Made by a program: the position numbers and the translations under genes. Under the pieces are notes generated by a model. That model was not told the DNA's origin and did not search any database. It saw only the letters and a program-made list of their open reading frames with translations. Shown here one piece after another: positions 3,961 to 16,964 of a stretch of 64,000 nt of DNA (its first letter is position 1; each line of letters starts with the position of its first letter). This stretch comes from a phage, in the sequence record NC_101835.1; one strand, given 5' to 3'.

Positions 3961-4097
3961 GGTGCTACAATGGGTGTGATTAAGAAATTAGTCCCAAATG
4001 TAGAGATTGCATGCTTTGAAATTATGTTTGCAATCGCAGTTGTAGTTAATGTGTTAGGTTACGGCTATTAATATCAAATAATTGAGGAGACCTCTAA

Positions 4098-6471: not shown

Positions 6472-6758
6472 TGAAAGATCTGGTTAAGATTAAGATTAAA
6501 GATACCAATGGAGAACTCAGTCATTTTGGAATTAATGATGGTGACGAGCTGATCGCACACCTGCCTACCAAGGAGGTTGTAAGCAAAGCAGTTGCCGGAG
6601 AAGAAGCTGCAATGCAGGCTGCAGGTGTGGATGAAAACTATGTAGCTATGTGCATGTGCCGAGATCAGGTTGTTCTGTATAAAGCGTATCGACCAAACGG
6701 AGCCACGGAGTGGCTTGTATTCCGACCCGAAGGATATGAAATCTTAGAGGCACTATGA
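6471..6758 (+). CDS. small acidic protein, paralog family 3
   Basis: GGAGGAAGA RBS; NDGDELIAHLPTKEVV.. ending EGYEILEAL. Confidence 0.55.
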   Translation: MKDLVKIKIKDTNGELSHFGINDGDELIAHLPTKEVVSKAVAGEEAAMQAAGVDENYVAMCMCRDQVVLYKAYRPNGATEWLVFRPEGYEILEAL

Positions 6759-6847
6759 TAAATCTTGCCAAGGTTGCAACGGCACTGTTAGTTATTTGCT
6801 GGTCTGTAACCTTAACACTGTGTCTTGTATTTCAGTGAGGTGCTTGT

Positions 6848-7139: not shown

Positions 7140-7280
7140 ATGACTGATTTTACTGAAGCTTTAATGATGGCCTTGTCTGTTTTAGCGCTATCGGTGTGTT
7201 TTGGGGCGTTATTCACATCTCTGGTTAAAGTTTTACATACAGTATTATTACCCAAGGAGCGCAGTAATGACGAAGATTGA
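7140..7280 (+). CDS. small hydrophobic peptide (46 aa)
   Basis: ATG after AGAGGTGAGGA; below ORF-track size cut-off; hydrophobic core ALSVLALSVCFGALF. Confidence 0.3.
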   Translation: MTDFTEALMMALSVLALSVCFGALFTSLVKVLHTVLLPKERSNDED

Positions 7281-8242: not shown

Positions 8243-8542
8243 ATGTCTACAAAGGCGGCTAAATACTCCTATATGCCATCAACCTCTGCAGAGGTAGACT
8301 TTAGTTTCGATGTGTTTCCACTGTTTGAGGTGGTTCTGGCATACCCAACAATACTAACTACTCCTGAATCACTTGTGCCTGTTAAGTTGCAGAACGCTAT
8401 GCATTCTATGCACTACAACAATAAATGTAGGCACAGATGGTGTCAGGACGAGGAAAAAGATTTGGATAGTTTGAGAGATTTTGACAGTCACCTTTTGACA
8501 CCTTTTAGCTACTCCAACCTTGATAAGCCCTCATGGGTATAG
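8243..8542 (+). CDS. hypothetical protein
   Basis: ATG after GAGGTGG; track start 8231 less likely. Confidence 0.45.
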   Translation: MSTKAAKYSYMPSTSAEVDFSFDVFPLFEVVLAYPTILTTPESLVPVKLQNAMHSMHYNNKCRHRWCQDEEKDLDSLRDFDSHLLTPFSYSNLDKPSWV

Positions 8543-8566
8543 CAAAATATCAAATTTAAGACACCT

Positions 8567-8593
8567 AGGACGCTCTGTGGCGTCCTTTTCTTT
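8567..8593 (+). terminator. rho-independent terminator
   Basis: AGGACGC/GCGTCCT stem, loop TCTGTG, then TTTCTTT. Confidence 0.55.
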
Positions 8594-8755
8594 GTCTGGT
8601 GCACGATTGCATACCTTGGACAGATAATCTCGTTACAGAGCGTTTAAGAGCTTCCTACAAACAACTCCATATTTCGAGCGTAGCGAGAACGCACGTCCGT
8701 TTTGACCCAAATCACCATACGCTCGGATTTTAACCAAACCCTCGCGGCGTTTCTA

Positions 8756-8784
8756 TTGACACATTACAGCTCCAGTGATAATAT
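8756..8784 (+). promoter_or_regulatory. near-consensus sigma70 promoter (TTGACA-N17-TAATAT)
   Basis: TTGACA 8756-8761, 17-nt spacer, TAATAT 8779-8784. Confidence 0.55.
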
Positions 8785-8804
8785 CCACACATCATTTGGA
8801 GAAT

Positions 8805-8906
8805 ATGGAATACACTATGAGAACATTGTCCGAAGTTTTAGTGGTGATCCTGATGATCATTACGTCCATAGCGGCTGTTGCCGGAATACTCACAGGTGGA
8901 ACATGA
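8805..8906 (+). CDS. small hydrophobic peptide (about 30 aa)
   Basis: Just downstream of promoter; GGAG before ATG; ..LSEVLVVILMIITSIAAVAGIL..; stop overlaps next ATG (ATGA). Confidence 0.35.
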   Translation: MEYTMRTLSEVLVVILMIITSIAAVAGILTGGT

Positions 8907-9115
8907 TCAACACACATGCATCTGAAGAGACATCCGAAGGAGTGACCATATGTCCCTTGGATGAGCCAGTTAAAGAGGAAAACTTAGATTCTGAGGACTC
9001 TTCATCTTCGTCCCAGACAGATCCTGAGGCTGATGACCTGACGTGGGAGGACATCGTAGATATCTGGTTCTCTATTATGCCTGAGCACGAAGAGTTCAGA
9101 GGTGGTAGACTATGA
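8903..9115 (+). CDS. small acidic serine-rich protein
   Basis: ATG after AGGTGG, coupled to upstream peptide; replaces the longer track ORF 8702-9115 which reads through the promoter. Confidence 0.35.
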   Translation: MINTHASEETSEGVTICPLDEPVKEENLDSEDSSSSSQTDPEADDLTWEDIVDIWFSIMPEHEEFRGGRL

Positions 9116-9234
9116 AGCACCGAGCCCACACAGGTTCCTCATGCTAAAGCATGGCCTGAAGAGGCAAACGTGCATAATTCCTGCGCATTTGGACGTATAA
9201 TCCTGTTCACACTCTCATTTCCAGAGGAGATTTT

Positions 9235-9450
9235 ATGAAGATAGAGATATTTGGTGGAGCTGACAACACTCGTGGCCTGATTTACCTTGAATTCGATGAA
9301 TCATACCTGCCAGAGGTGTTAAATATAGACTCTGTTGCTGAGGCTTTGGGAGTAAACCCTAAAGAACTCCACTCTTGTGCTGAGATCGATGGTTGGGAAG
9401 AGACCATGAACATTGATTTCAGTGAAGTAGAGGATGAACCGCTGGACTGA
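9235..9450 (+). CDS. small acidic protein
   Basis: GAGGAG RBS; MKIEIFGG.. acidic; last rightward gene before the non-coding zone. Confidence 0.5.
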   Translation: MKIEIFGGADNTRGLIYLEFDESYLPEVLNIDSVAEALGVNPKELHSCAEIDGWEETMNIDFSEVEDEPLD

Positions 9451-9800
9451 CACACAATTAGCTGCCCGGCTAAAGTGCTGGAAGCACCTATAACACATCT
9501 TTCAACTAAATTTCCTACCACCACAATCACTTACCTCCCACACATGACTGTTTGCTTGTTTAGTGAGCAGTCATGCCTTGACATTCTTGCCTATCCTGAT
9601 AAAATTAAGTTCTTCTCTTTTCTTTTACCGAGTAATTCGGGTTTTCTGTTCTCTTCGGTTTGAAGGGGTATGGAGATACACCTGAGTGAACAGGGTGAAC
9701 AACCGAACCTTTGGCTATGGCATTAGCATGGCGAAGCGGACGGGTGACGAAAGAGGGGCCGGAGGACACCAGTCACTGCCATATGATATATGGGTGATAA

Positions 9801-10342
9801 CCTGAAGAGTCTGAATAAGTGTTTAAGTACCAGTCAGAGGAAAAGGTGAATGGTAGCCGAAGGGGGGAGGGGGGTTTCTTGTATCTTTAATTTGTATATT
9901 ATGTATACACTTGTAAACCAATCTAATCTGAATCTGTTTACCACACAAAGCGGATAGAGACAAATATTGCCTATTAAACTTGAATTATTTATAGAAAATA
10001 CCACAACACTACTTAAGTCTTTGATTTTACACACAAATCCTGCAGATATTCACCCTCCATATTTAACATACTTGTAACATATTCCATACTCTACCTGCCC
10101 GATCAATTCACCCAACTACATCCCCATATTTTCCCTGTCTGTACTACCCCTGCCCCGCCGGGAGTCCCATCATATCTGGCTTTCCAGCAAATATCACACC
10201 CACAAATATCATTGCCTGAAGAGGGTTTCATCCCATAATACCTGCCTTACCTGAAGAGCGCTTCATACACCACGTAAATTTTTTAATTGACCTCCCCCTG
10301 CCCCGCCGGAGAGGTTGGCTTTTCCCACACAGACCTGAAGAG
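9801..10342. repeat. dispersed direct repeats (CCTGAAGAG x4; CCCCTGCCCCGCCGG x2)
   Basis: CCTGAAGAG at 9801, 10215, 10250, 10334; CCCCTGCCCCGCCGG at 10148 and about 10295; GACCTACAGG x2 near 10390-10450. Confidence 0.5.
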
Positions 10343-10918
10343 TCAGCCAGAAATATCTGAATAGGCCCAATTCTACCACGATTTTGACCTGACCTACAGG
10401 GAGGCCCGAAGGGTCTAGCTTTCAGCTAGAGTCCTTGCAGGACCTACAGGAGCGCTGCCAGGCGGACGGAATGGGAATACTTCTCATTCTTATAACAATT
10501 CTCAAATATCGAGGCAGTGAGAGAAATTAATAGGCCAGGCCGTTCACACAGTGGCACAACATTTGCAACCTATTTTGTGTGGATGAATGAGAATACCTAT
10601 CATTATGAGAATAGTTATCATTACTGGCAATTTAACATAATACCCATTATGCGCACCACTGGCGATCCATACAGGGATTGATAACATGAGTTACTGTTTA
10701 CGCATATAACAATTATATTTATTACTATTTGTGTTGGGTATAGTTAGCAGCCGATAGATTAGATATTGACCTGCAGACTTCCAACTGTCTAGACGTCTAA
10801 ACGCCCACACAGCAAGGATTATACATACACAACTGAATGTAAACAGGGCCGCAAAAATGCTACCATACCAGATTGTAAATTTTTCATGCAGCACTTGACA
10901 AAGAGGAGGAAAACTTGT

Positions 10919-10960
10919 CTGACATACTGTGACATAATATGACATAATAGTGACACACTG
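10919..10960. repeat. tandem 10-11 bp iterons (TGACATA-type)
   Basis: tgacatactg / tgacataata / tgacataatag / tgacacactg in direct tandem. Confidence 0.5.
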
Positions 10961-11052: not shown

Positions 11053-11312
11053 ACAATAATTAACTTGTTTACAATCTTTCACTGGCTATGCCAGGTGACC
11101 TTTGGTCACCCCTTCGGGTGTTTCTATGACATAATATAAAAGCAGGGCAACTATTAGAAGATCTATAGTTGCCTTGCTTGTTATGTCATGATTAACTAAA
11201 TACAAGGCAACTATGATCTGATTAATAGATTGCAGACAAACTATCACGGGGGTGATGGTTACTGCTTTTATATTATGTCGCGACTCCGTCGCGCCATGCC
11301 ATTCGTTTGCAT
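11053..11312. repeat. inverted-repeat element bracketed by 19-bp direct repeats
   Basis: CCATGCCATTCGTTTGCAT at 11053-11071 and 11294-11312; inverted arms 11127-11146 and 11262-11279; palindrome 11147-11174; GGCAACTAT 9-mer x4 in alternating orientation. Confidence 0.5.
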
Positions 11313-13536: not shown

Positions 13537-13685
13537 TTTTACCGCTCTTTAAAACAAGGTGCCAACCGTTTCCAATAGATCACTGACTGCCAGGACAATA
13601 CCGATCAGCACATATCTAACCATAAGGGGAAAGAGCGCCAATATTGCCACCACAATCCCCAAGGTGATAATTATCTTTCTCATGG

Positions 13686-14286: not shown

Positions 14287-14391
14287 TCACCCGATACCGT
14301 TGGAAGACAAGATCGCATTAGCCATGGTTGCAATCAGGCCAATACCCAGGGCAATAACCAAGATCACTGCATCGATTAATTTCTGTTTCAT
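14287..14391 (-). CDS. small hydrophobic peptide (34 aa)
   Basis: MKQKLIDAVILVIALGIGLIATMANAILSSNGIG; AGAAGAGAA upstream; below track cut-off. Confidence 0.3.
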   Translation of the reverse strand: MKQKLIDAVILVIALGIGLIATMANAILSSNGIG

Positions 14392-16459: not shown

Positions 16460-16716
16460 TTTGTTTCTCCTTTCTGGTTTTTGTGTTGGTGGGGATTAGC
16501 TCCCCGTTGATTATTATTATCCATATTTCGGACCGGATTGCAACACCCCGGAAGAAAAATTTTTTGAAAAAGTTAGGCCCCCAGGGATCGGGGGCCGTTA
16601 TCAGTTACTTACAGCGATAAAATACATCCCTACGCCTAACAATATTTCAAGGGCGATGATCTCAAGCCATACCATAACCCGGCGCACCTTATCGGTGCGG
16701 GGCTTATCCTTGGTTG

Positions 16717-16964
16717 TCATCGTCTCCCCCTTTCATCCTGGTAGTAGTGACGTGGTTTACAATGGCCCCCAGGAGTACCATCACCACGCACATCACAAGA
16801 AAAATTATCTCTGTCGTTGTTCGATCCATTGTTATAAAATTCCTTAAGATCAGGCCTGAAAATAAAGCGTTCGTTATTGAATCCATCACGCCAGGCGGCT
16901 GGCTTCAAATCTTCATCAAAGGGATTAATTAACGTGGTATTATTTAAACGGCTGGCCCACATAT
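16717..16964 (-). CDS. hypothetical protein
   Basis: ATG after GAGAGGAATAGAAAAT; an alternative overlapping frame (16704-16889) also exists, so the call is uncertain. Confidence 0.3.

Follow-up and report, generated by a model that had tools for sequence, protein, structure and literature searches.

Small membrane proteins consisting of a single helix are well known from TisB and similar type I toxins, and several acidic early proteins of phages, among them Ocr, ArdA and Arn, mimic DNA. Other described small membrane proteins include YohP, with 27 aa (bioRxiv 10.1101/2025.05.06.652344), and PhiNM1 Gp11 of S. aureus, which is early and inhibits host processes (PMC11237401). The locus studied here has a direct counterpart in phage rV5, where the orthologous site was listed as predicted promoter P162 (103296..103341) and assigned to a 101-aa 'ORF 162' rather than to a small peptide and a 70-aa protein (Kropinski et al. 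2013, PMC3606486, Table S4).

We analysed a stretch of 64,000 nucleotides of phage DNA (record NC_101835.1; hereafter the window), focusing on the surroundings of this promoter. Coordinates are those of the window, and features lie on the plus strand unless stated otherwise. Many Escherichia phages of the genus Vequintavirus (rV5-like myoviruses) match the region from 8400 to 9500 at 96-98% identity, the closest being phage naam (97.6%). The locus occurs in about 117 public phage records, every one of them Vequintavirus, and scans of metagenomes and IMG/VR added only close relatives. For comparison of the locus we used an alignment set of 22 relatives. The surrounding genes are small ORFans and appear to be of the kind usually taken as early or host-takeover arrays. 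Within this setting, the P162 unit is the last transcription unit of a rightward block of small accessory genes that extends over more than 9 kb.

The promoter, both ORFs that follow it and their PHROG families are already known, as predictions or as hypothetical proteins. The records of Murica (CPT_Murica147/148) and CarlMeissner (bas48_0137/0136) annotate both genes at the same coordinates and with the same ATGA overlap, and the members of phrog_34195 and phrog_16356, labelled 'hypothetical' or 'unknown function', show no difference from the window genes at the level of sequence. Among the records examined, Murica and those of the BASEL collection (CarlMeissner) are the only ones to annotate the peptide. 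Public Vequintavirus records also disagree over the acidic gene, which has 70 aa in some and 101-129 aa in others. What we add is a resolved gene model, a start codon and evidence of selection. We consider it very probable that the anatomy of the locus comprises a terminator, P162, a three-gene transcript and coupled translation, and that a 137-aa ORF spanning part of it is an artefact.

The upstream transcription unit is closed by a predicted intrinsic terminator at 8567..8594, formed by a hairpin (8567-8586) and a T-run. It is identified by its fold score: the hairpin has a dG of -15.2 kcal/mol and a z-score of -4.29, and 0 of 200 shuffles fold as well. The same terminator is annotated in the records of Murica, HdK5 and Gotham. 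Located 170 nt 3' of it is the sigma70-type promoter P162 (8756..8784), to which motif score, conservation and earlier prediction all point. As a preliminary description of this DNA had claimed, TTGACA (8756-8761) and TAATAT (8779-8784) are present and are separated by a 17-nt spacer; in addition, an extended -10 TG occupies 8776-8777, one base 5' of TAATAT. The same description called this a consensus promoter and the best match in the window, and neither label survives. The site scores 10/12 against the sigma70 consensus, with 6/6 for TTGACA and 4/6 for TAATAT relative to TATAAT (T1, A2 and T6 present), and it is outscored by 18 sites in the window, two of them with 12/12 (30110- and 24405-) and sixteen with 11/12. 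Given that the -10 hexamer matches at only four of six positions, a 'strong' promoter is not established either. Promoter-like sites as a class are enriched between positions 1 and 20000, where we counted 71 against 44.1 +/- 7.7 in shuffles.

Comparison among relatives is more informative than the score. The -35 hexamer is identical in 21/22 relatives. Outside NHEP1, which has a deletion here, the TG is conserved and so are, in the -10 hexamer, positions 1, 2, 4, 5 and 6, with either A or G at 8781; most relatives have TAGTAT, which likewise matches at 4/6. The spacing is constant at 17 nt while the spacer bases 8764-8774 vary. In NHEP1 the deletion took the -10 hexamer together with the peptide gene, and the junction re-forms TTGACA-N17-TATGCT. 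The rV5 site, itself a prediction, reads GGCGTTTCTG-TTGACA-CATTACCGCTCCAGTGA-TAGTAT; like the window it has the TG and a 17-nt spacer, with an identical -35 hexamer, and it differs from the window in having TAGTAT instead of TAATAT and a G instead of the A at 8755. The Gotham record carries the same promoter, from PhagePromoter. P162 is thus a well-supported, already published prediction, with a predicted transcription start at about 8791. The literature searched yielded no transcript start-site mapping for Vequintavirus and no transcriptomic, proteomic or genetic data on the peptide and acidic genes.

The first gene behind the promoter (8817..8906) encodes a small membrane peptide of 29 aa, MRTLSEVLVVILMIITSIAAVAGILTGGT. 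It corresponds to the hydrophobic peptide of roughly 30 aa noted previously: the ORF runs from 8805 to 8906 (33 aa), and an internal ATG at 8817 gives 29 aa. That this is a gene is indicated by its family match, by purifying selection and by conservation. The HMM match to phrog_34195 is full length (E 4.3e-21, profile positions 1-29/29). Over the core of the gene (8817-8903), pN/pS is 0.165 in the peptide's own frame, compared with 2.0 and 0.5 for the two remaining frames of the plus strand, variable sites are distributed 3/4/12 over codon positions 1/2/3 (binomial p 0.007), and the constraint ends precisely at the boundaries of the ORF. The ORF is intact in 20/22 aligned relatives. Using tblastn, we found the peptide in 113/117 Vequintavirus records at identities of at least 90%, with 56 identical at the protein level, and matches were confined to this genus. 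The accessory region evolves fast, and the peptide is among its most conserved products.

Several patterns bear on where translation of the peptide begins. Residues encoded by 8805-8816 vary freely among relatives (MEYT, MGYT, MECT, MERT, MKYA, MEYA). The SD-like GGAA at 8807-8810 reads GGAG in many relatives, and a second GGAG lies at 8798-8801; those relatives without the GGAG at 8798-8801 gain one at 8807-8810, six nt 5' of the ATG at 8817. In the most diverged relative, GAGGAG-N8-ATG stands at the equivalent of 8817 and the ATG at 8805 is absent. Taken together with the 29-position profile, these patterns make ATG 8817 and a 29-aa product the likeliest reading of the sequences. In this genome, ATG 8805 may be used as well.

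The best 19-residue Kyte-Doolittle window of the peptide scores 2.95 (residues 7-25), and position 2 is R or K in all homologues. A single-pass membrane protein is expected to have one hydrophobic stretch of 19 residues or more, flanked by positive charge on the cytoplasmic side, and we predict from the sequence that the peptide forms a single transmembrane helix. A glycine zipper (A19/G23/G27) was considered and is weakened by variation: this small-xxx-small motif is not strictly kept, with G23E in L006 and G23V in HMD-6. We also rejected a holin, given the uncharged TGGT at the C-terminus and neighbours that are ORFans and not lysis genes. A degenerate DNA pattern for VLVVILMIIT had four matches in bacterial genomes, and the one that we examined falls within a large multi-pass membrane protein.

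The second gene (8903..9115) encodes the 70-aa acidic protein of the preliminary description, with a net charge of -17, an estimated pI of 3.6 and an ORF ending at 9115. It is defined by alignment, by pN/pS and by a full-length HMM match to phrog_16356 (E 5e-49, positions 1-70/70). The protein has two contrasting parts. Its N-terminal 40 residues are variable in sequence and length and predicted to be disordered, with a pN/pS of 0.69, and the indels in intact genes (3, 12, 24, 27, 33 and 39 nt) are all multiples of 3. The C-terminal 31 residues, DPEADDLTWEDIVDIWFSIMPEHEEFRGGRL, show little or no variation and have a pN/pS of 0.12. AlphaFold2 gave a low-confidence model (mean pLDDT 62) with helices only at residues 48-58 and 60-64. 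Searches against Pfam, NCBIfam and PDB sequences returned nothing above threshold, and on these grounds we rejected a DNA mimic of the Ocr/ArdA type. The family is confined to Vequintavirus: a word-indexed search returned proteins of this genus only, and a profile search of 1.84 billion representatives returned two clusters.

The stop codon of the peptide gene (TGA, 8904-8906) overlaps the start codon of the acidic gene (ATG, 8903-8905) as ATGA, an arrangement that had been noted before. The overlap is kept in 21/22 relatives; in the remaining one, IMGVR_c, the peptide stops 9 nt before the ATG. An SD-like GGTGGA (8895-8900) lies within the last codons of the peptide and survives the NHEP1 deletion. 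We interpret the overlap, together with a ribosome-binding site in these codons, to indicate coupled translation of the peptide and the acidic protein. The C-terminal TGGT of the peptide may be conserved only because it encodes this downstream ribosome-binding site. The comparative evidence supports the earlier gene model of a promoter, a peptide and a coupled 70-aa protein.

Some relatives have lost parts of this arrangement. NHEP1 has no peptide gene and retains the acidic gene behind the re-created promoter. Aya has an intact peptide and a decayed acidic gene (a 74-nt deletion and many replacements). In ECP32, a 70-nt insertion alters or truncates the C-terminus of the peptide. The losses in NHEP1 and Aya imply that both genes are dispensable and that there is no strict dependence of one on the other.

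Further downstream, a gene at 9235..9450 encodes a second acidic protein, of 71 aa and estimated pI 3.5. It is preceded by a strong SD (GAGGAG, 9224-9229) and matches phrog_12108 (E 2e-52); homologues were found only in Vequintavirus, and its predicted structure has a pLDDT of 49. We found no conserved promoter or terminator between 9115 and 9235 and no convincing terminator 3' of 9450. This gene is probably the third cistron of a putative operon. Three other short ORFs were rejected as genes: 8599-8733 (44 aa) has a pN/pS of 1.2, 9112-9147 (11 aa) has a pN/pS of 1.67, and a minus-strand ORF of 24 aa (8644-8718) has a variable tail and loses its start in IMGVR_c.

The locus can be read in other ways, beginning with its frames. 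Based on the track of ORFs, the preliminary description reported a 137-aa ORF that would read through the promoter, and such a frame does exist (8702..9115, TTG start) and is open in the window. Were it the gene, the promoter and the peptide ORF would be chance features within it, and the long versions of 101-129 aa annotated in rV5, JEP1, HMD-6 and phiWec191 fit this reading. Counter to this, the frame meets a stop 18-43 codons past the TTG in 15/22 relatives and is open in only 5; pN/pS over 8702-8803 is 1.21; variable sites in the N-terminal part fall 7/11/7, with no codon periodicity; and only residues 68-137 match phrog_16356. Comparison among relatives already refutes this ORF, as the preliminary description had suspected: it is best seen as a spurious N-terminal extension of the acidic gene, open by chance across the promoter and the peptide gene, and we give practically no weight to its being real. 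The opposite strand offers a different candidate, a gene of some 94 aa (ATG 8917 to ~8633) of which the peptide ORF would be an antisense shadow. It is called in two records at the locus, FFH2 and rV5_ev146, and is open over at least 92 codons in about 11/22 relatives, with four more ending about 12 codons early. The minus-strand frame shares the wobble positions of the peptide, and its pN/pS over 8817-8903 (0.12-0.15) is as low as that of the peptide, so that codon statistics alone leave the strand unfixed. What argues for the plus strand lies elsewhere. The minus-strand frame is not intact in the window, where it contains two stops, nor in IMGVR_b, JEP1, V18, YP-6, NHEP1 and IMGVR_c, where stops, frameshifts or a deletion interrupt it; its first codon reads GTG in Aya and ATA in IMGVR_c, and no SD precedes it; and outside the peptide its pN/pS rises to 0.59 (8756-8816), 0.86 (8633-8671) and 1.5 (8672-8755), with no wobble enrichment. 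It would also be a lone gene opposing the rightward block. A real minus-strand gene is, in our judgement, very improbable. Finally, P162 could be inactive and the three genes expressed by read-through from upstream promoters. The 4/6 match of the -10 hexamer to TATAAT is compatible with this, as is the tendency of consensus scans to throw up chance sites (44 expected per 20 kb). Against it stand the strong terminator upstream of the promoter, the conservation of -35, TG, -10 and spacing despite a varying spacer, and the re-creation of a -10 hexamer at 17 nt by the NHEP1 deletion, and we regard read-through as highly doubtful.

With the plus-strand peptide gene behind an active P162 as the preferred reading, alternatives concerning what the peptide does can be weighed in the same way. 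It could be a mere translated leader, without function of its own, that brings ribosomes to the acidic gene. The retention of the ATGA overlap in 21/22 relatives, and the fact that the acidic gene has its ribosome-binding site within the final codons of the peptide, where it survives the NHEP1 deletion, would be expected of such a leader. Purifying selection along the whole hydrophobic core would not, and the peptide is 100% identical at the protein level in 56/113 records. In addition, Aya keeps the peptide intact beside a decayed acidic gene, and NHEP1 keeps the acidic gene and a re-created promoter after losing the peptide gene. We consider a functionless leader quite unlikely. Alternatively, the peptide could be a membrane toxin, either type I toxin-like or acting in superinfection exclusion, that is restrained by the acidic protein or by an antisense RNA; a host-inhibitory or exclusion role had been raised in the preliminary description. 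Size and hydrophobicity resemble those of small membrane toxins, the peptide is coupled to a partner gene, and a minus-strand site weakly resembling a promoter (9266 to 9238, 9/12) could yield an antisense RNA. This site was the sole candidate for such an RNA, and Rfam gave no match. The peptide has no match in Pfam or NCBIfam, including their toxin, immunity and exclusion families, which led us to reject membership in a described superinfection-exclusion or immunity family. The predicted 5' UTR comprises only about 26 nt before ATG 8817 and has no long folded leader of the type I toxin kind. In Aya the peptide persists although the acidic gene is not intact, which speaks against an obligatory antidote, and the virulence of the phage argues against a toxin or exclusion role. 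Overall, the toxin reading appears unlikely to us.

The promoter lies partly within an ultra-conserved non-coding stretch (8672..8767, no strand assigned) that spans roughly positions -120 to -25 of the promoter and includes the -35 hexamer. Its column entropy is about 0.04, below that of the flanking coding DNA, and every one of the 117 Vequintavirus records with an alignment covering 80% or more of the query is at least 95% identical. This stretch is possibly a cis-regulatory element. The element, taken as 8668-8770, has no repeats elsewhere in the window (95 matches versus 96.5 expected), and 8672-8767 has no match in E. coli genomes. A second ultra-conserved non-coding stretch, at 9580-9920, starts at a promoter-like site scoring 11/12 and has identities of at least 99% in 75/118 records; it lies inside the 2.6 kb reported as ORF-free in the rV5 paper (PMC3606486). 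Both stretches are more conserved than any nearby gene. They gave no RNA-fold signal (z-scores -1.1, +0.1 and -0.96) and no match in Rfam, and they are too invariant for a covariation test.

Looking across the entire analysis, we propose that host sigma70 RNA polymerase would re-initiate at P162 after the terminator at 8567-8586, producing a transcript that would carry the 29-aa membrane peptide (8817-8906), the 70-aa acidic protein (8903-9115) and the 71-aa acidic protein (9235-9450). The peptide would insert in the inner membrane with its N-terminus inside, as suggested by the Arg/Lys at position 2, and may affect either a membrane protein of the host or the integrity of the membrane while the host is being taken over. 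The acidic protein may bind a protein partner via its invariant C-terminal amphipathic helix, with the variable acidic tail serving as a disordered spacer. Both would be dispensable, lineage-restricted accessory functions, and they are probably early accessory proteins. It is from the sequences and their setting that we infer early timing, membrane insertion, topology and any host target, and the search for homology of the peptide or the acidic protein to any protein of known function found none. The mechanism, with a membrane-acting peptide, a partner-binding acidic protein and dispensability of both, is accordingly offered as a tentative proposal, somewhat less probable than its negation. 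Weighing anatomy and mechanism together, we regard the account as likely the best explanation of the locus. A more elaborate version, which we think improbable, would make the peptide and the acidic protein a two-part early effector, in which an envelope-perturbing or exclusion helix is paired with a target-docking partner and the promoter is governed by a new cis-site of about 95 bp at 8672-8767.

The main value of these results lies in annotation, namely of P162, the 29-aa membrane peptide, the 70-aa acidic protein and the 71-aa acidic protein. The genes are ordinary, and nothing about them would surprise a phage specialist. NHEP1, with no peptide gene, and Aya, with a decayed acidic gene, are ready-made natural mutants.

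How does this locus compare with the systems described at the outset? The acidic protein resembles Ocr, ArdA and Arn in being small and very acidic (here -17 in 70 aa), and it is found among ORFans of a type that tends to be expressed early. It is unlike these DNA mimics in that its acidic region varies and what is conserved is a helix of hydrophobic or amphipathic character; predicted disorder covers most of the protein, leaving one short helix and no folded, DNA-shaped surface, and there is no sequence match. The peptide and proteins of the YohP or TisB type are alike in having 27-33 aa and a single transmembrane helix, with hardly any residues outside the membrane. The peptide has no homology to them, and its gene differs from theirs in being phage-borne, coupled to a downstream gene and without a long 5' UTR. 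PhiNM1 Gp11 is alike in size and in its ORFan setting, in a different phage and host; the two have no sequence similarity, and the peptide is known from its sequence. As a functional analogy only, a plausible shared mode of action would be the binding of a host membrane-associated protein.

An almost invariant non-coding stretch of about 95 bp (8672-8767) lies at the predicted sigma70-type promoter of the peptide operon, taking in the -35 hexamer and the DNA directly upstream. Every one of the 117 Vequintavirus records whose alignment covers 80% or more of the query is at least 95% identical here, and identity falls to 77% in the flanks. Within this stretch is an 8-bp inverted repeat, with arms CGAGCGTA (8675-8682) and TACGCTCG (8718-8725). 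We looked for an RNA-fold signal in the stretch, for matches to Rfam and to E. coli, and for a second copy across the rest of the window, and found none. The stretch may be a regulatory DNA site, and we treat it as a candidate for one.

The promoter and the gene for the predicted 29-aa membrane peptide (8817-8906) have been rearranged in several relatives. In phage ECP32 (locus L012, about 1113-1182), the peptide gene carries a 70-nt insertion with a 13-nt direct repeat, TGTTGCCGGAATA, on either side. A deletion in NHEP1 (locus L007, about 985-1050) has taken out the peptide gene together with the original -10 hexamer, and its junction forms a new -10 hexamer, TATGCT, at a spacing of 17 nt. 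It looks as if NHEP1 derives from an ECP32-type sequence that subsequently underwent the deletion. In phage nomine (locus L017, 964-998) the -35 region is duplicated in tandem over 18 nt (CTGTTGACACATTACCGA), giving two TTGACA boxes, and the record annotates the duplication as a repeat_region. The promoter and peptide locus is also matched by 18 records titled 'Campylobacter phage' (MG0656xx). Those among the matches listed share 97% identity with E. coli Vequintaviruses, and the single such record that we opened, A141 (locus L015), is flagged UNVERIFIED. The host attribution of these records looks doubtful.

The frame of the acidic gene (8903-9115) differs in one relative, L005 (the locus of IMGVR_UViG_2051223002_000007), where two nucleotides, AC, are inserted after codon 3 and shift the frame relative to the ATG at 8903. 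Translation starting at a GTG that occupies position 8896 would be in frame again. In MaxBurger the match, seen by tblastn only, runs from residue 3 onward, which suggests that the same 2-nt change may be present there. Alternatively, the insertion in L005 could be a sequencing error in an ACACAC run.

Two neighbouring ORFs are unlikely to be genes: one of 44 aa (8599-8733, +; pN/pS 1.2), annotated in several records (rV5 gp156, bas48_0138), and one of 11 aa (9112-9147, +; pN/pS 1.67), which has an ATGA overlap with the acidic-gene stop.

On the coding strand of the small-ORF arrays there are further short ORFs, 27-60 aa long, that each contain a strongly hydrophobic stretch. They are found on the plus strand at 3970-4071, 6755-6838 and 7140-7280 (the last annotated in the BASEL and HdK5 records), and on the minus strand at 13549-13683, 14287-14391 and 16704-16886. 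The ORF at 6755-6838 has an ATGA overlap with the stop of the preceding gene, resembling that of the peptide gene. Predicted small membrane peptides of this kind seem to recur in this phage.

A second non-coding block, 9578-9920, is ultra-conserved (column entropy about 0-0.07; identity at least 99% in 75 of 118 records). It falls within the 2.6 kb described as free of ORFs in rV5 (PMC3606486), and near a GC-skew turning point. The block starts with a promoter-like site, TTGACA-N16-TAAAAT with a TG (9578-9605; score 11/12), and contains G6AG6 (9862-9874), after which comes AT-rich DNA. Its fold z-score is -0.96, and it has no match in Rfam. One idea is that the block is a putative transcription-primed replication origin or a non-coding RNA of unknown kind. 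Several families of short repeats occur in the non-coding region 9800-10950: CCTGAAGAG at 9801, 10215 and 10250, with its shorter form CTGAAGAG additionally at 8922, 9156 and 10334; CCCCTGCCCCGCCGG at 10147 and 10295; ATGAGAATA..TATCATT at 10471, 10587 and 10605; and TGACATAATA around 10930-10950 and at 11127. In appearance, these families look like iterons.
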